DNA of 50,701 nt from Nemertoderma westbladi. Lineage: Eukaryota > Animalia > Xenacoelomorpha. Numbering within the stretch: position 1 is the first letter of the stretch; the number at the start of each line of letters is the position of its first letter. Where the stretch lies: the NCBI GenBank assembly GCA_032718475.1, contig JAUCBJ010000537.1:1-50701 (forward strand). Reading direction: 5' to 3'. Positions 28,136 through 49,189 of this stretch are shown here, in pieces. A program made the position numbers and the translations under genes. The notes under the pieces were generated by a model that saw only the letters and a list, made by a program, of their open reading frames with translations, ran no database searches and was not told the origin of the DNA.

Positions 28136-31100
28136 ATGTCCACCCACTCAATCTACCTCTGACATTCCCCCGTCCACCAACTCCATCTATCTCTGACATC
28201 ACCGCTCCAACCACTCAATCTACCTCTGACATTCCCCCGTGCACCAACTCGATCTACCTCTGACATTTCCAGTCCACCAACTCCATCTACCTCTGACATC
28301 CCCCGTCCACCAACTCGATCTACCTCTGACATCACCGCTCCAACCACTCAATCTACCTCTGACATCCCCCGTCCACCAACTCCATCTACTTCTGACATAC
28401 CCTGTCCACCCATTCCATATACCTCTGACATCCCCTGTCACCCAACTCCGTCTACCTCTGACATCCCATGTCCACCAACTCCATCTACCTCTGACATCAC
28501 CGCTCTAACCACACCACTCAATCTACCTCTGACATCCCATGTCCACCAACTCCATCTACCTCTGACATCACCGCTCTAACCACTCAATCTACCTCTGACA
28601 TACCATGTCCACCAACTCCATCTACCTCTGACATACCATGTCCCCCAACTCCATCTACCTCTGACATCCCCCGTCCACCCACTTCATCTACCTCTGACAT
28701 CAGCTGTCCCCCAACTCCGTCTACCTCTGACATCCCATGTCCACCAACTCCATCTACCTCTGACATCACCGCTCCAACCACTCAATCTACCTCTGACATA
28801 CCATGTCCACCAACTCCATCTACCTCTGACATACCCTGTCCCCCAACTCCATCTACCTCTGACATCCCCCGTCCACCCACTCCATCTACCTCTGACATCC
28901 CCCGTCCACCCACTTCATCTACCTCCGACAAACCCTGTCCACCCACTCCATCTACCTCCGATATCCCCCGTCCACCCAGTTCATCTACCTCTGACATCAC
29001 CGCTCCAACCACTCAATCTACCTCTGACATCCCATGTCCACCAACTCCATCTACTTCTGACGTACCCTGTCCCCCAACTCCATCTACCTCTGACATCCCC
29101 CGTCCACCCACTCCATCTACCTCTGACATCCCCCGTCCACCAACTCCATCTACTTCTGACATACCCTGTCCACCCATTCCATCTACCTCTGACATTCCCA
29201 GTCCACCAACTCCATCTATCTCTGACATCCCCCGTCCACCAACTCCATCTACTTATGACATACCCTGTCCACCAACTCCATCTACCTCTGACATCACCGC
29301 TCCAACCACTCAATCTACCTCTGACATCCCCGGTCCACCAACTCCATCTACTTCTGACGTACGCTGTCCACCCATTCCATCTACCTCTGACATTCCCAGT
29401 ACACCAACTCCATCTACCACTGACATCCCCCGTCCATCAACTCCATCTACTTCTGACATACCCTGTCCACCCATTCAATCTACCTCCAACATCCCCTTTC
29501 CACACACTCCATCTACCTCCAACATCCCATGTCATGTCCACCCACTCAATCTACCTCTGACATTCCCCCGTCCACCAACTCCATCTATCTCTGACATCAC
29601 CGCTCCAACCACTCAATCTACCTCTGACATTCCCCCGTGCACCAACTCGATCTACCTCTGACATTTCCAGTCCACCAACTCCATCTACCTCTGACATCCC
29701 CCGTCCACCAACTCGATCTACCTCTGACATCACCGCTCCAACCACTCAATCTACCTCTGACATCCCCCGTCCACCAACTCCATCTACTTCTGACATACCC
29801 TGTCCACCCATTCCATCTACCTCTGACATCCCCTGTCCCCCAACTCCGTCTACCTCTGACATCCCATGTCCACCCATTCCATCTACCTCTGACATCCCAT
29901 GTCCACCAACTCCATTTACCTCTGACATCACCGCTCTAACCACTCAATCTACTCTGACATACCATGTCCACCAACTCCATCTACCTCTGACATACCATGT
30001 CCCCCAACTCCATCTACCTCTGACATCCCCCGTCCACCCACTTCATCTACCTCTGACATCACCTGTCCCCCAACTCCGTCTACCTCTTACATCCCATGTC
30101 CACCAACTCCATCTACCTCTGACATCACCGCTCCAATCACTCAATCTACCTCTGACATACCATGTCCACCAACTCCATCTACCTCTGACAAAGCCTTTCC
30201 CCCAACTCCATCTACCTCTGACATCCCCCGTCCACCCACTCCATCTACCTCTGACATCCCCCGTCCACCCACTTAATCTACCTCCGACAAACCCTGTCCA
30301 CCCACTCCATCTACCTCCGATATCCCCCGTCCACCCATTTCATCTACCTCTGACATCACCGCTCCAACCACTCAATCTACCTCTGACATCCCATGTCCAC
30401 CAACTCCCTCTACTTCTGACGTACCCTGTCCCCCAACTCCATCTACCTCTGACATCACCGCTCCAATCACTCAATCTACCTCTGACATACCATGTCCACC
30501 AACTCCATCTACCTCTGACAAAGCCTTTCCCCCAACTCCATCTACCTCTGACATCCCCCGTCCACCCACTCCATCTACCTCTGACATCCCCCGTCCACCC
30601 ACTTAATCTACCTCCGACAAACCCTGTCCACCCACTTCATCTACCTCTGACATCCCCGCTCCAACCACTCAATCTACCTCTGACATCCCCTGTCCACCAA
30701 CTCCATCTACTTCTGACGTACCCTGTCCACCCATTCCATCTACCTCTGACATACCCTGTCCCCCAACTCCATCTACCTCTGACATCACCGCTCCAACCAC
30801 TCAATCTACCTCTGACATCCCCTGTCCACCAATTCCATCTACTTCTGACATACCCTGTCCACCCATTCCATCTACCTCTGACATTCCCAGTCCACCAACT
30901 CCATCTACCTCTGACATCCCCCATCCACCAACTCCATCTACTTCTGACATACCCTGTCCACCCATTCCATCTACCTCAGACATCCCATGTCCGCCAACTC
31001 CATCTACCTCTGACATCACCGCTCCAACCACTCAATCTACCTCTGACATCCCCCGTCCACCAACTCCATCTACTTCTGACATACCCTGTCCATCCATTCC

Positions 31101-32394
31101 ATCTACCTCTGACATCACCACTCCAACCACTCAATCTACCTCTGACATCCCCTGTCCACCAACTCCACCTACTTCTGAGTACCCTGTCCACCCATTCCAT
31201 CTACCTCTGACATCCCCTGTCCACCAACTCCATCTACTTCTGACGTACCCTGTCCACCCATTCCATCTACCTCTGACATCACCGCTCCAACCACTCAATC
31301 TACCTCTGACATCCCCTGTCCACCAACTCCATCTACTTCTGACGTACCCTGTCCACCCATTCCATCTACCTCTGACATACCCTGTCCCCCAACGCCATCT
31401 ACCTCTGACATCACCGCTCCAACCACTCAATCTACCTCTGACATCCCCTGTCTACCAACTCCATCTACTTCTGACGTACCCTGTCCACCCATTCCATCTA
31501 CCTCTGACATTCCCAGTCCACCAACACCATCTACCTCTGACATCCCCCGTCCACCAACTCCATCTACTTCTGACATACCCTGTCCACCCATTCCATCTAC
31601 CTCTGACATCCCATGTCCGCCAACTCCATCTACCTCTGACATCACCGCTCCAACCACTCAATCTACCTCTGACATCCCCTGTCCACCAACTCCATCTACT
31701 TTTGACGTACACTGTCCACCCATTGCATCTACCTCTGACATTTCCAGTCCACCAACTCCATCTACCTCTGACATCCCCCGTCCACCAACTCCATCTACTT
31801 CTGACATACCCTGTCCACCCATTCCATCTACCTCTGACATCCCCTGTCCCCCAACTCCGTCTACCTCTGACATCCCATGTCCACCAACTCCATCTACCTC
31901 TGACATCCCATGTCCACCAACTCCATCTACCTCTGACATCCCCCGTCCACCAACTCCATCTACTTCTGACATACCCTGTCCACCCATTCCATCTACCTCT
32001 GACATGCCCTATCCCCCAACTCCGTCTAACTCTGACATCCCATGTCCTCCAACTCCATCTACCTCTGCCATCCTCCGTCCACCAACTCCATCTACCTGAC
32101 ATCCCCCGTCCACCAACTCCATCTACTTCTGACATACCCTGTCCACCCATTCCATCTACCTCTGACATCCCCTGTCCCCCAACTCCGTCTACCTCTGACA
32201 TCCCATGTCCACCAACTCCATCTACCTCTGACATCCCCCGTCCACCAACTCCATCTACTTCTTACATACCCTGTCCACCCATTCCATCTACCTCTGACAT
32301 CCCCTGTCCCCCAACTGCAAAATTTGCAAATTATATTGAAGTATTGGAATACACCATGTCCTGGAATATAGAGTCGTTATTCAGGTACCTGCCC

Positions 32395-33596
32395 TGTTCG
32401 CGCTTTTAGACCTTTAGCAGTTTAACCTGCCAAATTTAGGTGTCTTCTAGGTTATAAATCGACTTTAGCCTATGACAAGTATTTGATACACATAAACTAC
32501 ATTAGCCGAAGCCAGCCTATGCGCGACCATTCACCCACGGTTAAGGGAGACTGGATTCGGATGCTCTGACCTTATTGCGGTGTAGGCCTACTGTATTATT
32601 CGACTGATCGTTAATATATAATCTCTGACAAATATTATTCACTTTCGGGAAATATTAACAGTTCCTTTAGGACGTGGCGCTCTAAGTATGTAAACAGAGT
32701 TATAACTTACACTAAACACAACGGGATGGCTAATGATTCACGTATAAAGCGCATTCTTTAGGAGATGCTTTGTTATCTATCACACTCATGCACACTACCG
32801 CACAATGCTGCACACCGATCTGCCGACCTTCACTAATTGTAATCATATATAAGGAGAACAGCCACTGACACATGTAGGGTCTATGAAATAGCATTCAATT
32901 CACTCCAAAACCACTATAATGTAAGTCGCAATTGCTATATGTAACCGGTCTCTCTAACCTTCAGTATATCAAGAAGATTGGGGTTTTCTGATTATTTATC
33001 GATATTCTCCAAATATAACAATATTCCATCAACTGATACAATTAATAACCGACAGTAAATAGCAGTAAAATAATGCAGTGTTTGTATGTGACAATATGAG
33101 CAGTTTGTGATATGCAGATTTGGTTTGATATGATAGATAGAATAACAGTTATACGTTTCTATGATCAAAGCCGTTCTAATGTTTTGCTAAAGTCTGAAAC
33201 ACAGAATAATTCCACAGCCGATGTTCTGGCATCAGGAAAAAAGGTAAACAAAGACCACAATGCATTGTGCGATTTCCCGGAGGCCTCTGTGCAAGTAAAA
33301 TGAAAATCGCTCTGATTGGTCGAGTGAGTGAGCCTGAACAAAGAAAGCCAAAAGCTACACGTCGACATCTCAGCTGATAGATGTCGTCATCTGAAATACA
33401 CTGTATTAAGAGTATTTTGGTGCATTGCGGCATAAAATTGCTAGTTATGTCCGCTAAAGTACACATACAGAAGAAATGGCTTTTTATGTCTACTAAAACA
33501 CCTGTACAGTAAGGAAACGGCTTTTTATGTCCGCTAAAACACCTACAGAGTACTTAGCGGGGAAAATAACCAGCTAATTCCGCAAAAGCCTTTACA
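32395..33596 (-). repeat. 3' LTR (1202 bp)
   Basis: Matches 47655-48856 at offset 15260. About 10 substitutions by eye, no indels. Confidence 0.97.
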
Positions 33597-33604
33597 CCGC
33601 TCCC
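33597..33604 (-). promoter_or_regulatory. Putative short polypurine tract (GGGAGCGG)
   Basis: Purine-rich run directly upstream of the 3' LTR on the element strand. Confidence 0.5.
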
Positions 33605-33674
33605 AGAAAATGGGATTTAATTCTATAAAATATAAAAAATCACAGTTTCTAAAATATAAAAATACTCTAAACAG

Positions 33675-35226
33675 TTAGTCTTTCATGCGAGGACGGCGTT
33701 TACGCAGTTTTTTGAGGCTAGCAAGAGTCCTTTTCTCTTTGGGGCGAGCCACTTTACTAGGAGGGCTATAACTCCTGTGTGAAGGGTGCAATACAATTGC
33801 ATCGGAAGGTTTAGGATTACAGTCGGTGTATCCGCCGGTCGAGGTACCTGGTTGATCTATATCAACCTCAGTGGAACGAGGTCGAACAACCTGGAGAGCG
33901 CATTTTAAGACAGCAGCACTTATTGGTCCCTGACGGGTCGTTTGCACAAAAGCGGTAGGTGGACCGTGTGTAGTATGAAATTTCCTTGGTTTGATGATTC
34001 TTTTCAACTCGCGTTCTCGGACTCTATCGGAATCGATATGCTTCTCCTCGAGCTGATTTTCCTCCGCTTGTTATTGAAAGCATTCGTCCAAAACTCTTGC
34101 AGAAAGTAGAGTCGTCCAAGTTCGATATCTTCTTAGAGATTCCGGATTTCCTGATCGAACTGAGATAAAGCTAATTCGTTTACCGCTTGGACTTGCTGCT
34201 GCAATTTACATTTCTCTAAACAATTATAGGTTCCTTTTTCGATCTTTTGACGAATAGTGTCCAACGCGTTTCATACAACTCTCTCCTCCGCCTCGGTGAC
34301 AGGTTGTATCGGGTTAAACCGGGACGATGATATGGTTGAATGGCGATATTAGATGTCCGTGTCTCAATCTGGCTAGGTAAGATGGGCGAATATCTAGGGA
34401 GCCCACAACCGGAGTGCCACCGACTAACCGTTCGGGTAACACTAGATCTTTGAACAGTGAGTACAGTTCGGGAGGATCCGTGATACTATTAGGATCAAGA
34501 GTCTGAGGTCTAACTAGGGAATGAGGAGGTCTGACCGAGTATTCCGGAACTCTGATCATAGGTTTATTTAAGGATCGTTTGAATCGAACGAGCATAGGTG
34601 ATACATCGAACAAGTTTCGCTAGAAACTCCCGTAAATATAGCGAGTAAAACCGTGTTTAAAGCAACGTCTCCGCGGATGTTTATGTCTTTCCATTTGTTG
34701 GTTGGGTCTTGGGCATTCATCGCAATAATACCAAAGACGCACGTCTTGTAGGGGAAACGCGGGTGATATTTATTCGGTTTTACAATGTTTCTCTCAAGAA
34801 TTCCAAATATACGTTGGAGTTACCGCGTTTATCCGGTTCTTTAACGTCTTCTCTTTCGAGTCGATTTCGAATAGAATTTTCGCATTCGATTTTTAGTTTA
34901 TCGTTCCGACTCCGCTGGGTAGGATATTTAAATAGTACCATTTCCCTTTCGGTGTCGACATAGTCCGTATCGTGTAAATCGATAGGATGGCCAGTAGTTA
35001 AGAAGTCCATATACGTACCATTACGATGCGTATAACGAGCGGTGAATTTTCTATAGTCCAATTCACGCGTAAGTTGCTCCTGGGACATCGGCAGTTCGAT
35101 ATAACGACCATCGTCCTCCGTAGTAGTTGGACTAGCGTCGCCGCGTATCAAGCTATCAACAAACGCTTGTAAAGGTAGAGTATATCGATCCCTGATACCA
35201 AGATCATCTTCTATCAACTCAGTCAT
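33675..35226 (-). pseudogene. Accessory ORF of the BEL element, about 515 codons, frameshifted, unknown function
   Basis: ORFs 35226-34780, 34613-34314 and 34007-33675 can be joined through open segments in other frames (e.g. NIVKPNKYHPRFPYKTCVFGIIAMNAQDPTNKWKDINIRGDVALNTVLLAIF; LDTIRQKIEKGTYNCLEKCKLQQQVQAVNELALSQFDQEIRNL). Coding-like GC content against AT-rich flanks. Basic C-terminus. Confidence 0.7.
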
Positions 35227-35643
35227 AGCTGCTATATGAGTTTATCAATATTATAATGAGTTTATAATTAGGCTAGCAGGCGTCGCTGCCTACCCCTCAC
35301 GGCCCCCGGACAGTGCAAGATCCTCAGCGCTGATGCACTGCCGCCGCTGTGCTTATCGCCAACATAGTAGCTGCACAACGACAATAACAACCAGCGCGAG
35401 TCACTCCACTGTCCGTCCCAAGGGCTAAGATTTACTTCAGGTTATTACTGCAGAGTTAGGGCTACTTTCACAATTGCGACTCGCTACTGTAAACACACTT
35501 TAGTAGTAACATTCATCTATAAACGCACAAATTCCACACAACTGTCACAAACCGCACACATTCGGGCCATTTGTCCTTTAGTCAAGTGGCCTTCCAGAAT
35601 GCCACGTTATTATTATGTATCTCTGGATACTAGCAGTGCGCTA

Positions 35644-36403
35644 TTTATTCCGTATGCTATTCAATGGGGCACGCTTTATTGTTCTTTTAACTCACTTCTA
35701 ATTCTAGCATGGTTGTTGCTATGGTGACATTATGGAAAGCTAGCAGTAGAATTAGGGTAATTCTCATGCATACAGATCTGGGATGCTATTTAATAATATT
35801 TCTTTAATTGTCCATATCTCCCTTATACATGATTTTATGAATTTTATCGGCTATTGACTATATATTGGAGATTCTTGCACACTAATACACTTAATAGGGT
35901 GAATCTCCGCTCCCATGATCTATTAATTAATGGAATTTTGGGAATGTCATAAATTGTATAAAAATGACAATTTATCAAATTCATTAAAAAGATGAATTTA
36001 AATTTATTCCCGTAAATTTTATTATTTAATATTAAATAGACACAATTTTATTCCAGAGCATGTCTGGGGACTAAGATCCTGAATTCTAGGGAATTTGTCC
36101 TTTTAAGAGTATCGGTAAGTGCTACGATATCTTAGTAGACTAGAATTTTAAAGGATCTAAATTTTAACAGATTTTGATTTATATATTTTCTAGAGTTACT
36201 TGTAAGTATTTACTCTATTGTATTTGTTTGACAGATTTTATAAATATTAATAGTTAATATTTAAGATGGGCACCGGTTTATTCCAGAACTTGTCTGGGGA
36301 CGTTAACCACTGATTCTAGAATTTTGTCTTTCAAGTATATCGGTGGGTGCCGCGATATCTTAATCGACTAGAATTACAGATGGTCAAAGGGTTTAACAGA
36401 TTT
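35644..36403. ncRNA. Cluster of repeated stem-loop modules (35644-35777, 36047-36174, 36277-36403)
   Basis: Shared skeleton TTTATTCC..TGGGG..ATTCTA..TAGAAT..ACAGAT, with pairing retained despite sequence divergence. Function as an RNA is inferred only. Confidence 0.5.
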
Positions 36404-36539
36404 ATTTTGCGTTTTACGCTACTGTTAAAAGGACATCACACTACTATATGTATTATTTAATATACGGTATGAGAGCAATATTGCAAGAAACACAGTGAGA
36501 AGAGGCAAGTCGTTTCCAAGGTCTACCCAGAGCTTGGTT

Positions 36540-36914
36540 TACTACTATGACTACTACTACTATGATCGGCATGCTGCATTGCAGCTGCATTTTTAAGAAT
36601 GCTGTGCCGGCTTGTCAACAAAATTGCACCGCCACAACTCCCTATCACCCATGACATTTGCTAGATTATCCGCATCTTTAAGGCCAGTGTCCTTTAAGAT
36701 GCGTCTCAAGAAAGTCATGGGCTGTCCACCATGCTTATTCACTCCATGAGGCTGCCAAAGTACAAGATTATGCACTGGCTGGTCCTCACGGCGAAAGCAA
36801 TGTCCTGCAAAGCGGAGGCGATTTTGTTCTAGTGTCAAGCTTGGGGGAACCAATGAGACACCTCCAATGTTATATAGTGTCTGGTTGGAGATGTGTGCAT
36901 TGTACTTGACACAA
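36540..36914 (-). mobile_element. 5'-truncated RTE LINE, copy D, nested in the BEL element
   Basis: Near-identical to the 3' ~350 bp of copy C (ORF 36593-36853). Irregular (TAG)n tail. No clear TSD. Confidence 0.93.
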
Positions 36915-37404
36915 ACTTGACACTAAACGTTAAAATGTCACAATGTTAAAATGTCTATTTAGTTCACAAGGGGAGTCCCCAGCGTTTAACTCATAAAAAC
37001 AAACTTGACACAACTGGTTTAGCCGAGACACGAGGATCTGAATTTTGCATTCCTAATACTCTACTTACCAATAATACTTGAATATAGTAGGAGCTTTATT
37101 GTACTTTAATAAGTACGGACATTTCATCTTATTGTAGTCACGTATTTATAATATGATACGGACAGTAAGGAAAGAGAAAAATAATTATTTCTCGCCGTCG
37201 CACTAAATATATAATATATAAGTAATTAAGTAATAAACGCGAATATATATGGCACTAATCTACTAAATAATCGCTAAAATAACATTCTACTAAATAAAAT
37301 TAAAGAAAACTATTATAATAAAATTACATAATAATACATACCTAAATATAAAAATAATAAAGACAGATATAAATAATATAGTCACACACCCACTCCAGAC
37401 GCTG

Positions 37405-38780
37405 TCACGTTGGGGAGTCCCTAGATGTCTGTTGGATTAGGGAGGTGGTCGTGGGAAGAGTATCTTGCCTTCCATAGTTTCCGGAGAGTTCTCTGTCTCT
37501 TTCCAGTAAATATAAACGACCAACTGGGCGATTGAGCTGCTGTGTCTCGAAGACAATTCCCGTTTTCTTAAAGTTACGTCGCATGACGACGAGTTCTACC
37601 GATCGCACCAAACCATCATCCGAGATATGAGTCTCGATGATACGACCTGTCTGCCACCGCTTACGTGGAAGATCTGAATCCACAATAAGGACCATGTCTC
37701 CAGCGCCGACGTTTTCTTGCTGCGCAAACCACTTAGTTCGAAGTTGTAGCGTGGGCAGATAATGTTTTTCGAAATGGTCAGCGAAATGACGGGATAACAA
37801 CTGCATAAGTTGCCAAGTTTGCCGGCAGTATTCGTCTCCGTCCGTGATTTCCGATCGTGGGAGCATGGCTACAGGTTTCTTCAGTAGGAAGTGCGCGGGT
37901 GTTAGCGCTTCCAGGGAATCGGAACTCAATGAGACTGGCATAAGCGGTCTCTCGTTGAGATAGGCGGCGATTTCCTCCATTAACGTCCGCAAAAGTTCGT
38001 CGGTGAGATACGCGCGGCATGGCACTATAAAGTGAAATGCGTCTTCACGCTTCTGATTAATCTCTCCCAACTTCCTCCCCACCAAGGGGCGTCGGCGGCG
38101 TTGAAGGTCCAGCTAGACGCTGTTACCCTTAGCTGATCGTCCACCTGTCTTTGGTTCCAATCTTTGACGTAAGCCTTGATTTCATTGTTGGCACCAATGA
38201 AGTTCGTTCCCTTATCAGATCTCATCGTGTTACTAGTTCCAAAGCAAGCGATCTGTCGGCGTAAGCTCAATATGAAGCTATTGGTAGACAAATCGTTCAC
38301 CATATCGAGATGGATAGCTCTACAAGTCATACAGACAAAGATGACACACCATCTCTTGACTATAGTCCTAGCACGATATACTTCAATAGGGCCAAATAAA
38401 TCCACACCGGTATTAGTAAAGGGTGGTTCATAGAAGCTTACTTGTTCCCTAGGTAATTCTGCCTCTCGCTGTGTTAAAGGCCTACTGAATGCTTTCCTAC
38501 AGGGTATGCAGTTCCTAAGAACTTGGTTCAGAGCTCTACGGGGTTTATGAAAATAATAGTGAGTTCGAATTTCGCTAAGAACTCGTTCTCTACCAGCATG
38601 ATAAAGCTTACTGTGAACATCTACAATCATCTTGATTTGAATTTCAAGATTTCTAATGAGTATGGGAAACTTAGTGTCAAAGGATAATGGAGCATTAGTC
38701 AGTCTCCCTCCAACACTTATTAACCCATCTATCATTGTGCTAGAGAAACGATCCCTTAAGCGCATCTGTGGATTTCTCAA
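37405..38780 (-). pseudogene. pol: BEL integrase (HHCC, DDE core, C-terminal domain), frameshift near 38030
   Basis: HSKLYH..CIPC, TGVDLFGP, SDKGTNFIG, GGSWERLIRSVK, then LNERPL, LTPAHFL, KW, GDMVLI, W.TGRI, DGLVRSV. Confidence 0.92.
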
Positions 38781-38831
38781 TAACAGGAAATACTTATCGG
38801 AATCCTCATAGCATTGCAGGAGTCTCAGTAT

Positions 38832-39914
38832 CTATTTATTGGTTTCTTCATGCTCCTGGTAACTGATCTTCTCCTTCAGAAACCTGTCGGATATCTTGTA
38901 TTTGGGAAGATCTTTAACAACATGGACCTGCGCAGATGTCAGTGGAGCGGTATCACTAGTGGTCTTCGTCCTGGAGTAGTGATGATGAAAACATCGCTTT
39001 AAATATGTAACGGCCTTACAGAGCCGATTCCAGGAACTATAGTGATGTATCGCTCTCTGCAGGAGGGGTGAGAGTCCTTGCGAGACGTCTGGTATTCCAG
39101 ATTTCCAATCCCTCTCTCTGATTTCCACAACAGACTTATTTGTGGCTGTGGGTTTCGGATCCAAAGCGTCGTCTCCGGAAGTGTGTAGTACAGACAGATC
39201 TACCACGGGTTTAAATAACTTCGATTTACTCGCCCGAGTTTTAGGTTTGACTTTCTCCGCTCCCTTGGCCTGTCTAATCTCCGCCGTAGTAAGATGAGGA
39301 GGCCATTCATCCTCTTCTTTGCTTAGGAAGTCGGGTCCACCTAACCAGTCTGGAGTATCTATCAGTTCTTGTGGAGTTGCTCCCCTGGAGGCGATGTCTG
39401 CTGGATTAATCGTTCCGGGGCAATGTCTCCATTGATCTATCTTCGTGCGACTAAGTATAATGGCTACTCTGTTGGTAACGAAGACGCTGAACTGACAGAC
39501 TTCATTGGTTATATACTCCAACACGAGTAAAGCATCGGTCCAATAGATAGTTTTCTCCAGTGGATAGTCGATCTGTTCTGTTACATTCCGGCCGATGGCT
39601 GTAGCGTATAGAGCCGCTTTCAACTCCGCTCGAGGAACTTTCAACTTGTTGTTTATCAAGGCCTTAGAGGTAACCAAGGCGACCTTAATTCCATCCGGAG
39701 TTTCAACTCTCAGGTAGGCTACTATACCTATTCCCATATCGCTAGCGTCTCCAAACACATGGAGTTGAGAGGAATACGTAGGGAGAACATGACCAAAATA
39801 TGAACGGGAAATTATAAAGTTCTTGATTGATGGTAGAGAATCTTCCCATTTCATCCACTTCTTTAATAGTTCTCCCTTAAGTGGATCGTCCCATGAGTGG
39901 TTTTCAAGCCACAT
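38832..39914 (-). pseudogene. pol: BEL RT connection and RNase H segment, frameshifted at both ends
   Basis: SWDDPL, LHVFGDASD, VPRAELKAA, YWTD, FVTNRV, WRHCPGTINPADIASRG. Confidence 0.92.
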
Positions 39915-42900
39915 TTTTGTTGTACTAAACTCCGAGCAATCAATATAACCGGGCTAATAAATCCCAATGGATCGAAATAAGTGCTCAGGATACTTAGACA
40001 AATCCGTTTAGTCCGAACTGGATTATCTCGCTGTTTTAGCTGGAAAAACAGGATATCTCTCTCTGTGTCCCATTTCAAACCAAGTGTCTTGGTTTCTGGA
40101 AGATCGTCTTTGATTAGGTCTAGATCTTTAACTCCTCGGTCTTCTACCGGGATCGATTCCAGATACTCACGGGAGTTGCTGGTGAATTTAGTTAATCGAA
40201 ATCCACCTCTTTTCAAGCACTCTACCGTTCCTTTGGCGACATCAATGGCTTCTTCCACTGATGGGAGGGACTTTAAATTGTCGTCCATGTATATATCCCG
40301 TTTGATGTTGTCGATCACCTCTTTAGAGAAGGCGTCCCGGTTGTCATCAGCAGTGGTGCGCACTACTGAGCAGGCGTTTGAAGGGCTCGAGATGATCCCA
40401 AAAGCCTGGATGGTCATCCAGTACTCCACCGGTTTCTGGTTGAGGTCTCCCTCAGGCCACCACAGAAATCGTAGGCTGTCTCGATCCCTATCCAGCGCCT
40501 TAACTTGTAAGAACATGCCTTCTATATCGGAGGCGAAAGCGATTGAATATTGTCGTAATCTTAAAAGTATTCCCAACAAGGATTGGAGTAAGTTGGGTCC
40601 TGGCAACAACTCGGAATTGAGGGATTGGCCCATGTAGAGGGCGGAGCCGTCAAATACTACCCGGACTTGGTTGGGTTTACCGGGTTTGGGAACGTAATGA
40701 TGTGTTAGATAGTACGTTCTCTCAGTTATGGGTGTATCTTCCGGTACTCGCTCCGCATATCCCTTGTCAATAAATTTCTTCAACTGAGTTTTGTACATTT
40801 CCTTAGCTGAAGCATTTGCCGTAAGGCGTCGATGTAGTTGCGCAATTCTTTTCTCCGCCAAGGGTCGGTTGTTTATAAATATAGGTTCTCGCTTTCGAAA
40901 TGGCACACCAATTTCATATCTACCTTGATCTTTAAGAAAACGTGTAGTTGTTTCCTGTATCTGCTTGGATCTTTCTTCTTCTACCGATAGGGCCTTATCG
41001 TAGGAATTAGGCTCTACAGCCTCTTGAGTAAAGAATCGTACGGCGTGTTCATCCCGAGTCTTCGCGTTGTAGCGATCTATCACGTCATTCAGTTCGTCGT
41101 TATAGTCGACTGGTCCTGATGGACGAATGAGTTGACATAGGTTCACTTGGTTTTGCCAAGTTTCGTTTTCCGTAAGGAGGTCGATGGTATTCTCCTCGTC
41201 GAAGAGTTGGTGGATATCGTCATTATCTGAGGAGTATGGTGTTCCCTCAGTTGTGTCGTCTACCTCACTGTTCTCCTCTTCCCATTCACTTACCTGGTAG
41301 ACCCGTTCTTTGGGTAACCTTTCCATGAGAGTTCTACGGGAAGGGCCAGTAAAGTACCAACCTACTCTAGTTCTTCCCGCATAGGTTTGTAGTGGTTGCG
41401 GTTGAGCAGGCCGTTTCTCCAATGTCTCAAGCGCCTCATGCGCATTTTGGCCGATGAGTATTTGCACTCCAGGGTAGTCTGTGTTGAATCTAGGTATCTT
41501 AAGCTGCTGGGTGAAATCGTCCTCATCCCAGTTATAAGGTTCCACTTGGCTGGTAGCGAAGTTCTTTATCGCTACCATTTTTACTGACCTTATACTGTGT
41601 TCTCCTAGTTCATCCTGGGGGGTGGACAACGCACCTACATAGTAATCTGCAATTACTGTAGATTTCCAAACCTGCATAATTCCTGACATGTTTAACTTAG
41701 TTCGGAACTTGGGTTGTCCAGCAAAGATGTCTTCGGCTAGTTCTTTGTCGATGAATGTTCCTGTGCTGCCGGAGTCAAGGAGGGCATTCACTATATAACT
41801 CTTGTCAGGCCCGTGGACTCTCAACTGCACTATGGGAAATTCTCGGATTCCTACGTTGGAAGTTGGTGCTTTCCAAGATGGTTGTCGGTCAGGAGTAGTT
41901 AGGGGGAGCTCATTGTCGGTTTCCTTCTCATACGTAAGTGCTCGATACACTGCGGTATTTATTAGGTAACAGGATTCGTTTTCGTCGGAGAATTCGTCCG
42001 TATAGAATCCTTCCATCTCAGAACTTTGGTCAGTGTCGTTCACATCACTGAATTGGACATGTAGTTCGGACTCACTTACCTGACTCGGGCTGTTTCTTTC
42101 GAATTCAGTGTGCAACAAGATATGATGTTTCGCGCCGCACTTTGCACACCTTGCGTCGGAGTAACAGGTTCGCCGTTGGTGTCCTTGTCTGAGGCAATTA
42201 TAACACAACCGCTTATCCCACATGACTTTACGTCTATCTTTTAGTGATTTCTTTAAAAATTTATCACACACACTTAAACGGTGGGACCCGTCGCACAGCG
42301 CACATTTTGGTTTGATGTTACTCACCTTACCTTGGGTAACGTTGTGCACTCTCGTTCTTTCCTCGGGCTTTCTTCCGTGAACTCTATTAGGAGACGTAGG
42401 AGGAGTTTTTGTTACCTGTTCTCTCCTGTCATTGGTTCGAGACTTAAATTTACTTACGTCTTTAGGCGCTTTGTTGATATAGTAAGATCTTTCAGTGTCT
42501 TTCCCGCTGTCCTCTTCTTGAGAAGCCTGGCTTTCGCCGTCGTCGGTATAACACACTGGTGTTACTTTTCTCCTAGAAACGGGTTTCTCACTTACCTTAT
42601 TTTCCGGTGTCTTCTCTCTGGACTGCTTTAGGAGCTGTAATTTTACTTCTCCATCTAAGAATGACATGAGATCAGCCATGGTAGGGTCTCGTCGTTGTTG
42701 TTCCATCATATATAACACTTTCTTATCCCAGCGTGTACCTACTCCACCCTTTGGTAAAGTAGATGCTACGGCTCCAATAACCATAGAACTCTGATATTCA
42801 TGAGACTTACCTAGCCAATCTAATTGTCTACAGATCTCCTGAATCTCATCGGAAAACTCTATAATCCCGCTGCTAATGAACTTTCGGGGCGCTACCAATT

Positions 42901-43069
42901 TTGCATACAAATACCTAGCTATGTTATTCCTATTACCATACCTGATGTTTAGTGTATCCCAAACTTGTCTTAATCCATCTGGATGTCCAATAAACTTTAA
43001 CGCCATTAACTTGGGAGATCCTTCCAAGCACTCGATGAGGAATCTAAGTTTCTCTCCGTTAGATAGCAC
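39863..43069 (-). CDS. BEL gag-protease-RT segment (1068-aa open piece of the polyprotein)
   Basis: EKLRFLIECLEG..L..RYG capsid-like region. Knuckles CALCDGSHRLSVC, CYNCLRQGHQRRTC and CAKCGAKHHILLH. Protease ALLDSGS..ILIG. RT RVVFDGSA, DIEGMFLQV, LRFLW, FGIISSP, IYMDD. Confidence 0.93.
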   Translation of the reverse strand: MLSNGEKLRFLIECLEGSPKLMALKFIGHPDGLRQVWDTLNIRYGNRNNIARYLYAKLVAPRKFISSGIIEFSDEIQEICRQLDWLGKSHEYQSSMVIGAVASTLPKGGVGTRWDKKVLYMMEQQRRDPTMADLMSFLDGEVKLQLLKQSREKTPENKVSEKPVSRRKVTPVCYTDDGESQASQEEDSGKDTERSYYINKAPKDVSKFKSRTNDRREQVTKTPPTSPNRVHGRKPEERTRVHNVTQGKVSNIKPKCALCDGSHRLSVCDKFLKKSLKDRRKVMWDKRLCYNCLRQGHQRRTCYSDARCAKCGAKHHILLHTEFERNSPSQVSESELHVQFSDVNDTDQSSEMEGFYTDEFSDENESCYLINTAVYRALTYEKETDNELPLTTPDRQPSWKAPTSNVGIREFPIVQLRVHGPDKSYIVNALLDSGSTGTFIDKELAEDIFAGQPKFRTKLNMSGIMQVWKSTVIADYYVGALSTPQDELGEHSIRSVKMVAIKNFATSQVEPYNWDEDDFTQQLKIPRFNTDYPGVQILIGQNAHEALETLEKRPAQPQPLQTYAGRTRVGWYFTGPSRRTLMERLPKERVYQVSEWEEENSEVDDTTEGTPYSSDNDDIHQLFDEENTIDLLTENETWQNQVNLCQLIRPSGPVDYNDELNDVIDRYNAKTRDEHAVRFFTQEAVEPNSYDKALSVEEERSKQIQETTTRFLKDQGRYEIGVPFRKREPIFINNRPLAEKRIAQLHRRLTANASAKEMYKTQLKKFIDKGYAERVPEDTPITERTYYLTHHYVPKPGKPNQVRVVFDGSALYMGQSLNSELLPGPNLLQSLLGILLRLRQYSIAFASDIEGMFLQVKALDRDRDSLRFLWWPEGDLNQKPVEYWMTIQAFGIISSPSNACSVVRTTADDNRDAFSKEVIDNIKRDIYMDDNLKSLPSVEEAIDVAKGTVECLKRGGFRLTKFTSNSREYLESIPVEDRGVKDLDLIKDDLPETKTLGLKWDTERDILFFQLKQRDNPVRTKRICLSILSTYFDPLGFISPVILIARSLVQQKCGLKTTHGTIHLRENY

Positions 43070-43100
43070 AGAGTTCTGTATGTTATCTTTATAATATTCA

Positions 43101-45625
43101 TTAAAACCATTTCATCTCATCTCCATTGAACTTGACGATCTCTCCCACCTTTACCGCTTGACGGGCTTCGGTTCTAGCCATTTGACGCGTAAAACTTTCT
43201 TGGGCCATCGTGTTATTTAATATCGAGTTATCGGTATATAAATTTCTCGGATTATGATCAGGTCTATATGGAATATCATTGTCAACAGGTTTATAATTAC
43301 CCTTAATACGGTTTACTATAGGAGTTTCTACTTCACTAGCAGTATAGATGCGTGTAGGCTCCACACCTTGCGCATGAAATACTTCAGACCTAACAGGTTG
43401 ACACATTGTTACAGGGGGTGGTGGTATACCCTTTTGTATATTTACCAATTTATCGCGTTCTAACGCGATACTCTGCAGCACTTCTTGCAACTCTAACCTA
43501 CCCTCTCTGACTGTTCCCTTTAACTGCTGAACAGTCCCTTCCATCTCCCAGATCTGCTGAGAGGAGCAGAAACGGTGTTCCCTCAGCTGCCCGAGCAGGA
43601 GACCCATCTCCCGCCGTCCCTCATCCACCCACTCCACCGCCGAAGCAGGAGCTGCCAACATAGTAGCGGGTAGACGAGGGACAACGGGCGACAAATCGTT
43701 GATATTTCGCTCGGAGTCCAGGACAGGAACTGTCTCAGGGGCAGTTCTGCTGGGCACAGGTAGTTTAGTGCTGTGCAAAGGGAATTTAGAGGTAGGTTCT
43801 GGGAGTACAGGTGTCTCTATCACCGAAGGGGTGGCTTCAAGAACAGGCCTAATTATTTCAGGCTCATCTACTATAGTAGGGAGTCTTTCTATTCTAATAA
43901 TCTGGTCTGTGGGTTCTGTACACCTAAGTCTGTGCTAGCTAGTTGCCTTCTAACAGCTGGGGGCAAATCAGGCAATTTCTGACGGTGGGGCATTCTTCTA
44001 CGCCTGCTTAGACGAGATCTATTTCCCCCGCCTTCAGGATCGGTGGTATCGCCTTCATCAGATGATGTAAATCCCTGTCTTTTGGGAGTAGATCGACTTA
44101 TCATCTGCATTTGACTAGCTGTTAACTGTTTATTCATGTAGTCTTGCTTCTCTTGAAGATTTTCCAAATCTAGTTGGGTGGTCTCTTCAGATGCTCTCCG
44201 TTCTGCTTCTGCCACTGCTATCTTTCTTTCCACTTCTGCCGCTTTTCTTTCCGCTTCTGCCGCTTTTCTTTCCACTTCTGCCGCTGCCTCTGCCACTTTT
44301 CTTTCCACTTCTGCCGCTGCCTCTGCCGCTTTTCTTTCCACTTCTGCCGCTGCCTCTACCGCTTTTCTTTCCACTTCTGCCGCTTTTCTTTCCACTTCTG
44401 CCGCTTTTCTTTCTGCTTCTGCCGCTGCCACTGCCGCTGCTGCTGTCTTTCTGTCTTCTATACGTTTTTTCTTTACTTGTTCTTCTTGGACCCTAGTGAT
44501 GCGGAGGCGTTCATCAAATTTAGCTTGGTTTGCAGCTAACATTTCCGCATCTATTGCGTCCAACACAAACTTGGCTCCTTCACTATTAGGACGAAGTCCA
44601 GCCAGCCTTCTCCTCAACTCTTCATCACCTAGAAATCGTTGATAGTCTGACAGATAGATGTCAATAGTGTCCTTCTTCTACGGTTTCTCTGCTGTCGATT
44701 CGCTTTCCACCTGAGAAAAGGTAGCGTCTGTTGATTCTCCGTGGGTTGAGTGCTCAGCCAGCTGAAATTTCCACTGGGCCATTCCTTGAACCTTGAGACT
44801 CACCCGCTGGAACCAAGTCTTTACGGCAACTTGCAACGACGTGTCTTGTCTTCTTTTCGAAGCTTCCTCAAAGGCCGATAGGATTAGTCTGATTCTTCGA
44901 ATTCTTTCTCTAACTTGATAAAGCAGCTCTCCCTGCTCTTGAGGTCCTTGGGGTTGTCGAAACAGTTGTTCTTCTAATCGCTCCAAAGAGCTGAAGAATC
45001 CCTGTACATATCCTGCTGCCGACCTCTTCCACACAGCTGGATCACTAGTGTCTTTTGTCACTCCCATCCTGTGTATGTCTTCCCAGGCAACTTCCGATAA
45101 GTCAAACGGGAGTCCGGGTCTGGGGAAGTTCCATTGCGACTCGACAATAGACTTCAGTTCCTCCCTTGTGTATCCCGCATAACTATCCTTGGTCGATCGC
45201 TTACTTCTCGCCCAATCAATTTGGTGTTCCTCCACCGCAATCAATACCCTAGTGAGTACGGCTGCAGGAAGGATGAGAAGGGGATCCGAATAAACCGCAT
45301 CTGCCATCTTTGCTCCGCGCTCGGGTGTCAGCTCTACAGTATCCGAACTACTGGAGCTGTCGGGCCGCTGAGAAATAAGTTCTCAGCTCGAGTGTTGCTG
45401 CTGTTTAACAGCTGATTCTTGGTCCCGCTTGACTTGAGCCTGAGTGCCTATGATAGACCTACGGTGTTGGACTAGCCTAGGGTCTGATACTACTACTGGA
45501 GGGATGATCTTTCTTACAGTAGGAGGTGAGTTGAACTTCGGTCTCACACGTTCCACACTCCTGTCTGGGTCACAGATGGTTGTATCTAGGAGACTGTCTG
45601 ACAGGTTTTGCTTTGTGTCAGACAT
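43101..45625 (-). pseudogene. gag: Long N-terminal gag extension (about 840 codons) with two in-frame stops and frameshifts
   Basis: ORFs starting at 45625, 45307 and 44617 share one frame and are separated by single stops (45383, 44678). The frame shifts to ORF 43823-43101, which ends in KFNGDEMKWF, the FxGD..xW motif that begins the BEL capsid domain. Confidence 0.8.
44195..44445 (-). repeat. Coding 21/33-bp repeats (AAEVERK)n, coiled-coil-like
   Basis: TTTCTTTCCACTTCTGCCGC units on +, translated in ORF 43889-44617. Confidence 0.85.
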
Positions 45626-45759
45626 GTTTGTTTGTACAGTTGAATGCCTACTGCTATATTACAGTTAAAGCAAGTCTAGTAATTCAGTATCAACTGTTAG
45701 CCTAGTAATTAATTACCGATATCGTTACTCAGTGTAACGTGATATATTTACAATATATT

Positions 45760-46137
45760 AGAATACCGGTATGCACTTATAGTATATATATAAGTATTAT
45801 TACAGACTAGGTTTGTCACAGAATACCGGTATATAATTTCATCGCAAATATATAGAAATATATAATAAGCATATCGTAAATACCGGTATACAGCTTACAC
45901 TTATAGTATATATAAGTATAATTATAGACTAGAATTAATTACAGAATACCGGTATATAATTTTAGCTCAAATTTATAGAAATAAATAGAATAAGCCTATC
46001 GTAAATACCGGTATACAACTTACACTTATAGTATATATAAGTATAATTATAGACTAGAATTAATTACAGAATACCGGTATATAATTTCAGCACAAATATA
46101 TAGAAATATATAATAAGTCTATTGTAAATACCGGTAT
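45760..46137. repeat. About three copies of a 123-125-bp AT-rich tandem repeat in the 5' leader
   Basis: GAATACCGGTATATAATTT recurs at 45821, 45944 and 46069. Each unit carries two ATACCGGTAT palindromes. Confidence 0.85.
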
Positions 46138-47643
46138 GTCAATTATTTTAGAATAATTGAATTTCTGAATTTTAGGGTTACTTGGTTACTTTACTTTACT
46201 TTATTACCATTATTTAAGCAGTAGTCCAACTGATATTAAGACCTAATTGTTGTATGACAGGCCTACTATTTTATAAATCGGTTTGAGTTGATTTATAATA
46301 TATATACCCGTTTAATGGGTTTCGTTACAATATTTGAAATAAATGTTATTATTTCTGGGAAGGAGTCACTACACAGAAGCTGTACGCTCTCAGTGAAGTG
46401 CTACTTGTTGGACACTAAAACAAATAATTCTAATTTGCCTAAGTTACTTATTACTACAAATTATGTACAATACGGGATGAGATTACAATCTCCAAATAAA
46501 CACAAAAATTACACGTACGAATTTTAGGGGTAATTTTAAAAGAAGTCTACAAACCAGCCTAACAAGGGGTTAGAATTTCTGGTTATTACAACGGACAGGA
46601 TACTACAGTATTTGAAAGTAATGAAGCAGTAGTAAATATATTGCGTTGTCCAGATAGGAAAAATACCACCGTCTGACGACTTATAGCCGTAGCGCTATAA
46701 GTACTACGTTATGTACACGGAGTGTTCCTACCTAGAAGTTAATTACCGCGGCCTACCAGAGCCAACGTGCCTATTAACCACTTTACAACACAAATATACT
46801 GCCTACACACTAATTACCTTCGGAAAGCACTGTACACTAAACCCTAAATTAGGTACAAGTACTTATACAACAAATAACCAGCAGTTAAAAATACTTGTAC
46901 AGTAAAAGAACCACGGTATCTGCCGGAGTGACCAGAGCATAAAATCACCAGTCTTTACCTACGCCGAACAGCCCTGATGTAGTACCGGGGTTAATTTAAC
47001 TATAACGGTATGTATAACAAGCACTATTACTGTAGGAATAAACTTGGGGGTATGTATGTTGCGAATAATCGCATAAACTCTGAATAATAAATATTACGCT
47101 ACCCGTACAGACTACACAAACAAACTACAAACCAAATGCTGGCAGACTACTATCAAGCCTAAATAAACTACAGTATATGCAGACTCCGAAATGGTTAGTT
47201 AGTATGCGTTCTAACCGAGTAGTACGACTTATTCTTTCGGGGGGATTTACCTTACAGCACTGGATGCCACCCACGTTCCTAACTAGTACTTTATCGGACA
47301 TACACTCTACACACACTGCAATCTCTTCAGACTTAACAACAGTCAGACAACAGTCCAGCCTATAAATTATCTGTACAATCTGAGCAGGCTTATATGCCTT
47401 CTGCTCAATATTAACTTACAAATAAATAAAACTGACAGAAATAAGTAAAATCCCAATAAAAAACCAGGGTGGCCGTCCCTGATTAAATATCAAGACCTAC
47501 CGGTATATAATTATCAAATCGAATAATACTGCTGTACCTGTACTGCTGTAAGTACCGGTTCGGGTGGTTAGGCAGTCAGGCCTACTGGTTACCGGTCGAC
47601 CGGTACTTTTCGACTTTATTGCCTACGTTTCAATAAAGAAGCA

Positions 47644-47654
47644 ATAACTGTTAT
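47644..47654 (-). promoter_or_regulatory. Non-canonical primer-binding site ATAACAGTTAT (candidate self-priming PBS)
   Basis: Abuts the 5' LTR end, lacks TGG, and is the exact reverse complement of ATAACTGTTAT at 48412-48402 on the same strand within the LTR. Confidence 0.6.
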
Positions 47655-48856
47655 TGTTCGCGCTTTTAGACCTTTAGCAGTTTAACCTGCCAAATTTAGG
47701 TGTCTTCTAGGTTATAAATCGACTTTAGCCTATGACAAGTATTTGATACACATAAACTACATTAGCCGAAGCCAGCCTATGCGCGACCATTCACCCACGG
47801 TTAAGGGAGACTGGATTCGGATGCTCTGACCTTATTGCGGTGTAGGCCTACTGTATTATTCGACTGATCGTTAATATATAATCTCTGACAAATATTATTC
47901 ACTTTCGGGAAATATTAACAGTTCCTTTAGGACGTGGCGCTCTAAGTATGTAAACAGAGTTATGACTTACACTAAACACAACGGGATGGCTAATGATTCA
48001 CGTATAAAGCGCATTCTTTAGGAGATGCTTTGTTATCTATCACACTCATGCACACTGCCGCACAATGCTGCACACCGATCTGCCGACCTTCACTAATTGT
48101 AATCATATATAAGGAGAACAGCCACTGGCACATGTAGGGTCTATGAAATAGCATTCAATTCACTCCAAAACCACTACAATGTAAGTCGCAATTGCTATAT
48201 GTAACCGGTCTCTCTAACCTTCAGTATATCAAGAAGATTGGGGTTTTCTGATTATTTATCGATATTCTCCAAATATAACAATATTCCATCAACTGATACA
48301 ATTAATAACCGACAGTAAATAGCAGTAAAATAATGCGGTGTTTGTATGTGACAATATGAGCAGTTTGTGATATGCAGATTTGGTTTGATATGATAGATAG
48401 AATAACAGTTATACGTTTCTATGATCAAAGCCGTTCTAATGTTTTGCTAAAGTCTGAAACACAGAATAATTCCACAGCCGATGTTCTGGCATCAGGAAAA
48501 AAGGTAAACAAAGACCATAATGCATTGCGCGATTTCCCGGAGGCCTCTGTGCAAGTAAAATGAAAATCGCTCTGATTGGTCGAGTGAGTGAGCCTGAACA
48601 AAGAAAGCCAAAAGCTACACGTCGACATCTCAGCTGATAGATGTCGTCATCTGAAATACACTGTATTAAGAGTATTTTGGTGCACTGCGGCATAAAATTG
48701 CTAGTTATGTCCGCTAAAGTACACATACAGAAGAAATGGCTTTTTATGTCCACTAAAACACCTGTACAGTAAGGAAACGGCTTTTTATGTCCGCTAAAAC
48801 ACCTACAGAGTACTTTGCGGGGAAAATAACCAGCTAATTCCGCAAAAGCCTTTACA
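47655..48856 (-). repeat. 5' LTR (1202 bp)
   Basis: Direct repeat of 32395-33596. Three ~35-40-bp TTATGTCCGCTAAA-type repeats at about 48705-48810 in the U3 end, and a minus-strand CCAAT at about 48575. Confidence 0.97.
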
Positions 48857-49189
48857 TGCCCCCCCCCCCCCCCCCAAATTGTTCTACAAATCTTAGTGAG
48901 ATTGCATGAAATTTGAAACAGAGAAAGTTTCACCTCCCGACCACTGACTGGGTGACCCAGAATTTTTATTTTTGGTTTCATTCTTTAGCTACAAGCGTTT
49001 AAAAAAGTGTCTCCGTCGATATTGCACCAGGTACACCGCAGTTATTCTTCAAACATTTAGTGATTTGTTGGTGCTAGTGGAAAGCTGACCGTGCAAGGAA
49101 TCCAAATAGGTAAACATATGTGAATTTGGTTGGTAAATAGCTGAGATATGGGCATTAGAATTTTGCATGTATTTGCTTCCACTGCAGGT

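Follow-up and report, generated by a model that had tools for sequence, protein, structure and literature searches.

Self-priming, in which an LTR retrotransposon primes from its own RNA, has been proven in fission yeast elements (Tf1). In the portions of the literature available to us, it is described for the Tf1/sushi group and predicted for Tcn1 and for the TAR lineage of Ty1/copia (PMC6317226, PMC4600332, PMC5341516). The predictions for plant TAR elements (Houba, Osr-1) and plant Tcn1 chromoviruses come from complementarity between LTR and PBS (PMC6317226, accessible text), and self-priming is therefore not confined to one superfamily. As given in the accessible parts of the Tf1 reports, the primer of that element is 11 nt long, with an RNase H cut between bases 11 and 12 (PMC7175516), the first five bases of the PBS are ATAAC, and about half of the cDNA retains a full-length copy of the PBS (PMC11042837). 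Tf1 also requires a “pretzel” of three duplexes, in which LTR sequence downstream of the primer pairs with each flank of the PBS (10.1101/2022.12.06.519325, accessible part).

For BEL/Pao elements, the ICTV description of Belpaoviridae (genus Semotivirus) specifies a PBS of 18 nt that is complementary to tRNA-Arg or tRNA-Gly, and a genome of 4.2-10 kb (PMC8742986). We found no report of self-priming in BEL/Pao in the literature searched, which took in few subscription papers and no supplements, so an earlier report is possible. The subject is absent from the accessible portions of PMC3601003, PMC2864245, PMC5443660, PMC8220671, and PMC13524379, and the main texts of papers on Sinbad, on metazoan BEL/Pao elements, and on molluscs make no mention of a PBS or a tRNA (PMC554778, PMC3118150, PMC6238403).

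The stretch of DNA analyzed here (the window, 50,701 nt of Nemertoderma westbladi contig JAUCBJ010000537.1) carries on its minus strand an element that spans positions 48856-32395 and measures 16,462 bp, including a nested insert of 368 bp (Table 1). Judged by its predicted proteins, this is a BEL/Pao element, as the first-pass annotation of the DNA had called it. Its gag-pol domain set comprises a DUF1759 Gag, protease, RT (YMDD), a Peptidase_A17/RNase H region, integrase H2C2, and DUF5641. Pfam matches were obtained for DUF1759, Peptidase_A17, Integrase_H2C2, and DUF5641, and that for the protease is weak; the YMDD and three Cys-His knuckles are visible in the translation. The domain order is PR-RT-RH-IN between TG...CA LTRs with a TSD, as is expected of BEL/Pao. 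Among the matches listed, the closest proteins are BEL/Pao polyproteins with 40-48% identity (best 48%), and all those that have names or domains are BEL/Pao-type proteins. The named closest proteins come from fishes, cnidarians, echinoderms, and molluscs. For the N-terminal piece of Gag, no homologue was found among longer proteins.

With Semotivirus, the window element shares the Cys-His knuckles of Gag, the PR-RT-RH-IN order, an LTR within 0.2-1.2 kb, and a short polypurine tract, but it has no tRNA PBS and, at 16.5 kb, exceeds the 4.2-10 kb given for the genus (PMC8742986). It is thus outside the ICTV description, and we do not place it in the genus. In a quick tree of 46 RT rows, which took in neither loci L081-L098 nor 51 loci without a PBS call and included no named reference elements of the clades Sinbad, Sparrow, Surcouf, Suzu, BEL, Pao, Tas, Dan, and Flow, the window element forms a long end branch (1.69) in no supported group. 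Given this lack of a supported position, the relatives described below are treated as analogues at a distance.

Table 1. Positions in the window of the BEL/Pao element and of the features that bear on its priming.
Feature	Position	Strand	Details	Basis
TSD, upstream copy	48857..48861	-	GGGCA (5 bp)	
5' LTR	47655..48856	-	1202 bp, TG...CA	LTR pair comparison
CCAAT-box match	48575..48581	-	In predicted U3, about 165 nt upstream of candidate primer	Putative
Candidate self-primer	48401..48412	-	ATAACTGTTAT(T); LTR positions 445-456; predicted R start	
Pretzel partner (predicted)	48006..48020	-	TAAAGAA-T-GCGCTTT; the two halves can pair with both PBS flanks	
U5-end arm	47660..47666	-	AAAGCGC; pairs with 48012-48006, -8.5 kcal/mol	
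Non-tRNA PBS	47654-47644	-	ATAACAGTTAT; adjoins LTR, no spacer	
Post-PBS arm	47634..47640	-	TTCTTTA; can pair with 48020-48014 (pseudoknot), -3.5 kcal/mol	
Hairpin	47614..47638	-	8 bp, immediately 3' of PBS; kept in sisters with another loop	
Leader	45308..47643	-	About 2.3 kb; 125-bp tandem repeat at 45774-46137	
gag-pol	37405..45382	-	Seven reading-frame pieces, broken by stops and frameshifts	
Polypurine tract	33597..33604	-	GGGAGCGG; adjoins 3' LTR	
3' LTR	32395..33596	-	1202 bp, TG...CA; 10 differences from 5' LTR	LTR pair comparison
Candidate self-primer, 3' LTR copy	33141..33152	-		
TSD, downstream copy	32390..32394	-	GGGCA (5 bp)	

The two LTRs are 99.2% identical, with none of their 10 differences in the primer site or the pretzel arms, and the copy is a recent insertion. 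Despite this identity, gag-pol has six reading-frame breaks; either the copy is defective and was moved by helpers, or the breaks are assembly errors. Some 3.8 kb separate the integrase from the 3' LTR (33597-37405) and hold sense ORF pieces of 153, 101, and 131 aa, which are possibly a decayed extra gene; none has a Pfam match, and the 153-aa ORF (34780-35241) has no Atlas match either. The 368-bp piece within the element (36547-36914) is 98% identical to 27770-28137 in the opposite orientation, and its 109-aa frame, which has no Pfam match, looks like the C terminus of a LINE RT.

The features on which the first-pass annotation had built its proposal were found again. The 5' LTR is followed directly by ATAACAGTTAT, and the same strand of the LTR carries ATAACTGTTATT at 48412-48401 (33152-33141 in the 3' LTR), which is the exact reverse complement over 11 nt. 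The complement grows to 12 nt if the terminal A of the LTR is counted, the 11-nt core being LTR positions 445-455 (48412-48402), and Watson-Crick pairing ends at 48412. No tRNA-type TGG is nearby, as the first one starts 189 nt past the LTR and none occurs in the first 188 nt. The 12-bp primer/PBS duplex is predicted at -11.0 kcal/mol. The 11-mer was present in 14 of 20,000 dinucleotide shuffles of the LTR, and only 5 of 14,028 interior positions, the PBS among them, have an 11-nt complement in the LTR. When offsets of 0-5 and spliced matches were permitted, 1 of 410 interior 30-mers reached 11. The own-LTR complement at the PBS is therefore real and beyond chance.

This arrangement resembles that of Tf1, Tf2, and Tj1 (Tf1/sushi), which likewise have an 11-nt PBS complementary to their own LTR. 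As in Tf1, the PBS starts with ATAAC (PMC11042837, accessible part), and two flanking arms with the topology of the Tf1 pretzel are possible (10.1101/2022.12.06.519325, accessible part). The first-pass annotation had stated that the Tf1 primer begins AUAACUG; in the accessible text, ATAAC starts the Tf1 PBS and not the primer (PMC11042837), so that the parallel it drew holds for the common start of the PBS, whereas the motif had been misassigned to the primer. Nothing relevant to the letters of the Tf1 primer was found in the literature searched. The likeness sits at the priming end, and a match of five AT-rich letters may be a coincidence.

Unlike the Tf1/sushi elements, the window element has BEL/Pao proteins with no Pfam match to a chromodomain, an animal host, a predicted R-U5 of 758 nt, and a near-palindromic site, with a predicted start and a predicted cleavage. 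Its relatives need the removal of an intron to form the primer, and no such step is mentioned for Tf1/sushi in the source portions available. The TAR and Tcn1 elements belong to other superfamilies and another kingdom than the window element, and BEL/Pao lies outside that survey in its accessible part (PMC6317226). We class the window element as a probable case of Tf1-like self-priming in BEL/Pao; it is outside the Tf1/sushi group, and the likeness is one of mechanism only.

Sister copies were sought among diverged contigs (of unspecified kind) of public run X1, which have zero cover at 48366-48647, a region that includes the primer site; no RNA run was among those listed. Eight contigs aligned to 47560-47760, and three of these span the LTR end (depth 2.2-7.1), one of them with at least 31 aligned letters on each side. 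Sister copies with a TGG PBS, which the first-pass annotation had held would count against its reading, were not seen: all three spanning contigs continue with ATAACAGT, none has TGG, and the PBS is retained over 10-13 nt in each. The missing TGG is therefore not a one-copy deletion, and the PBS is a family trait. In two of the contigs the match to the window ends at nt 10 and nt 13, respectively, and the third has a change at PBS nt 9, which may be an error (depth 3.6). By a hand reading of loose ends, the hairpin 3' of the PBS is present with a different loop in both diverged contigs, which differ from each other by one compensatory pair and one wobble.

More distant relatives were taken from the best 80 of 543 loci (21 of 64 parts of the collection) and from 18 further loci of a second scan; no relative turned up in two scans of viral contigs. 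A repeat pair was present in 50 loci and in none of 39 of the 80 and 9 of the 18. Twelve of the 80 lacked a usable LTR start or end (L020, L033, L042-L045, L051, L063, L065, L070, L071, and L080), and L082, L085, L089, and L094 of the second scan lacked a usable LTR; L063 and L065 were scored nonetheless, and no complement was found. In 18 loci, the point at which the two copies diverge showed the LTR end; these relatives are at about 40-47% RT identity. The end was set from the sister L073 for L067 (contig end), it was read past one mismatch for L092, and the ends of three relatives were moved by one base after inspection.

Among these 18 readable relatives, 15 (about 14 families) have an own-LTR complement of the PBS, 10-13 nt long and 0-4 nt from the LTR end. 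The complement is contiguous in two, and in the other 13 it is split by a canonical GT...AG intron of 67-451 nt, whose donor reads GTAAG, GTGAG, or GTACG and whose AG acceptor is rich in pyrimidines. In the corresponding null, no relative has more than 5 of 410 interior 30-mers that reach 10; this interior-position null replaced a matrix of non-cognate LTRs by PBSs, which was inflated by related families. All 15 positives have a PBS that starts with GT or AGT, and that of the window element starts with AT. Three relatives fail, namely L017 and L059, whose ends are not CA, and L081, which by eye has one mismatch at the predicted junction. TGG lies within 5 nt of the LTR in only one of the 18, L059, whose LTR end is ill-defined.

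A blind set was formed by 15 loci in which the LTR start, but not its end, is known. Spliced matches of 10-16 nt were found in 8 of them, 3 of which are near-copies of loci already counted, and spliced matches of at least 10 were found in none of the 15 on the opposite strand. Contiguous matches of at least 11 occurred in 4 of the 15 on either strand and were not counted. One further positive is L087. The first-pass annotation had proposed checking whether PBS and LTR 11-mer covary in related BEL families, and they do in L084 and L086: the RTs of this pair are 87% identical, two primer bases in exon 1 differ between them, and so do the two matching PBS bases.

With no tRNA site in the window element and an own-LTR complement both there and in 15 of 18 relatives, an own-RNA start of DNA copying is likely in this animal group of BEL/Pao elements. 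The proposal of tRNA-independent, LTR-derived priming in BEL/Pao is well supported by these relatives, by the compensatory pair, and by the lack of TGG in the window element and its sisters. Going by the sequences compared here, the window element itself very probably primes from its own RNA.

Most relatives would need splicing to form the primer; the window element is an intron-less form. A splice-built primer was also tried for the window element and rejected, as the best spliced match is 10 nt, has a non-consensus donor, and is shorter than the contiguous one; the sole GTRAG donor in its LTR (47970) does not build the complement. The site at 47970 is a consensus GTAAGT donor, and a strong acceptor-like site was noted by eye in the leader at about 47433. 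If joined, these two would delete the U5 end and the PBS and give a non-priming mRNA.

Several other observations were made in these loci. The relative at L054:6904-13929 is intact, with LTRs that end in TA rather than CA, a 5-bp TSD, and a spacer of 4-5 nt before the PBS. In L092:1539-6258, a nested element in reverse orientation has LTRs of 331 bp followed by a GGTTATGGGCCCAG site, which we take to be of the half-tRNA-Met Copia type. The BEL/Pao elements with LTRs in L081-L098 belong to contigs classified as bacterial MAGs, and host contamination is the most likely reason.

The sequences that flank the PBS add a second likeness to Tf1. Complements of both flanks, 7 nt each with a one-base gap between them, lie at 48020-48006. 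Arms of 7+7 Watson-Crick pairs arose in 7 of 2,000 shuffles, and in 12 of 800 under looser settings, in a test devised after the arms had been seen; with G-U pairs allowed, 20 of 150 shuffles had them, which is not significant. The arms are mostly missing in relatives, where among 14 only L058 comes near (8 of 200 shuffles). Two sister contigs carry changes in the weaker, post-PBS arm, and they retain the hairpin with which this arm competes.

Folding was computed without pseudoknots. The minimum-energy fold of an 853-nt RNA from 48412 (z -1.75) includes the duplex between the 5' end and the PBS. For an 838-nt fragment with the same start, this pairing has a probability of 0.55 at 37 C and of 0.02 at 20 C, and it loses to a competing fold by 0.6-5.5 kcal/mol. 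These predictions are equivocal; folding neither sets the transcription start nor proves the duplex.

A transcript start at 48412 would predict a U3 of 444 nt and an R-U5 of 758 nt. As the first-pass annotation had cautioned, no TATA-like motif lies 20-50 nt upstream of this position. Only two of 14 relatives have a TATA upstream of the complement at a distance of 26-31 nt, and a third has CATAA. Neither AATAAA nor ATTAAA occurs in the window LTR; in relatives that have one, its position is downstream of the complement (9 of 12 checked, and also L084/L086), and a primer at the poly(A) site is therefore disfavored. On balance, we favor a Tf1-like 5'-terminal primer, with a predicted start no more than a few bases from 48412.

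Self-priming could instead use an internal primer, which would derive from a transcript with an upstream start, from the 3' LTR copy, or from a second RNA, and would be freed by a cut 3' of the duplex. With an upstream start, U3 would therefore be shorter than 444 nt. We consider this alternative unlikely, although several observations agree with it. For starts upstream of 48412, the predicted pairing is equal or stronger (0.64-0.97 at 37 C), an extension upstream of 48412 with G-U pairs and a bulge brings the duplex to -15.2 kcal/mol as opposed to -11.0, and the CCAAT match is about 165 nt upstream of the candidate primer. In addition, a 5'-terminal primer would require first exons of only 3-6 nt in the defined set of spliced relatives, and exons this short are unusual. 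However, Watson-Crick pairing ends at 10-13 nt in all 15 positives and in the window element, which is near the 11 of Tf1, and the sequence that extends the pairing is lost in two sister contigs. The TATA motifs at -31 in L069 and -26 in L086, together with the downstream position of AATAAA/ATTAAA in relatives, also count against an internal primer.

Priming by a host RNA, such as a tRNA half or fragment or another small RNA, would make the LTR complement a chance match or a regulatory shield. Half-tRNAs are recognized as a third type of primer (PMC6317226, accessible part). Against this reading, which we judge improbable, the absence of TGG leaves no place for a mature tRNA 3' end, and the GGTTATGGGCCCAG site of the nested element in L092 shares only GTTAT with the window PBS. 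Moreover, the letters of the PBS vary among relatives yet follow the LTR of each, with the compensatory change in L084/L086. No Rfam family was found in the window, and no tRNA gene was found there or in the 26 of 98 loci screened.

The first-pass annotation had itself warned that the 11-mer is nearly palindromic, and each of the two 11-mers is in fact palindromic except at the central base, with the PBS and its flanks reading CAATAAC-A-GTTATTG. The complementarity could thus be a mere by-product of a duplicated near-symmetric site that serves for protein binding, as an RNA dimer contact, or as a hairpin primer site, and the sites would form homodimers of -5.0 and -5.5 kcal/mol. This too has little probability, since the central base is complementary and not identical between the sites and the heteroduplex has roughly twice the stability. 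The motif is also confined to the PBS and the two LTR sites within the 50.7 kb, its symmetry is broken after nt 10 in one sister contig, and the PBSs of relatives have own-LTR complements while being non-palindromic. Finally, a chance match in AT-rich DNA after deletion of a normal tRNA PBS, although compatible with an AT-rich match in a copy whose gag-pol is broken in six places, is largely refuted by a p of about 0.0004-0.002, by the like, non-TGG starts of all three spanning sister contigs, and by the near-absence of TGG among the 18 relatives, and we give it almost no weight.

Under self-priming from the 5' end of the transcript, minus-strand DNA of the window element would be primed by the first 11-12 nt of its own RNA. 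The RNA 5' end would fold back on the PBS, aided by the two 7-bp flanking arms in a pretzel of the Tf1 type, and the RNase H of the element would, as in Tf1, make its cut where the duplex ends. From the 3' end GUUAU released in this way, RT would continue directly into U5, and plus-strand synthesis would recopy the primer, so that a perfectly matching PBS would be regenerated. In most relatives, the primer may be assembled by splicing out the LTR intron, and the unspliced 3' LTR would pass this intron on. The intron would survive because strong-stop DNA would transfer to the 3' LTR downstream of the unspliced copy, and splicing of the 3' LTR copy of the intron would yield intron-less forms. 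We tentatively extend this to a broad aquatic-animal lineage of BEL/Pao elements that may have abandoned tRNA priming, most of which would splice a capped first exon of 3-6 nt onto LTR exon 2. The window element could then be an intron-less branch that converged on the Tf1 design, with an 11-nt 5'-terminal primer ending in GUUAU, no spacer, and a pretzel.

If the splice-built primer is real, the spliceosome would control reverse transcription, and host splicing would be tied to its start. Likewise, self-priming would reach a third LTR superfamily and many animal hosts, and its elements would probably be beyond the reach of tRNA-fragment control. PBS-based annotation would miss such elements, and the repeated origin of self-priming would become testable. 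The window element provides the intron-less, Tf1-like comparison, with base-precise predictions of a start at 48412 and a primer of 11-12 nt.

The DNA next to the element is a 20-kb array (11861-32394) of about 617 copies of a 33-bp unit. The array is open on the plus strand as an 11-residue repeat rich in Thr, Pro, and Ser, which appears mucin-like from its composition. The element was inserted antisense to the array, about 10 bp beyond a donor-like site, CAG|GTACCT, at the end of the array.
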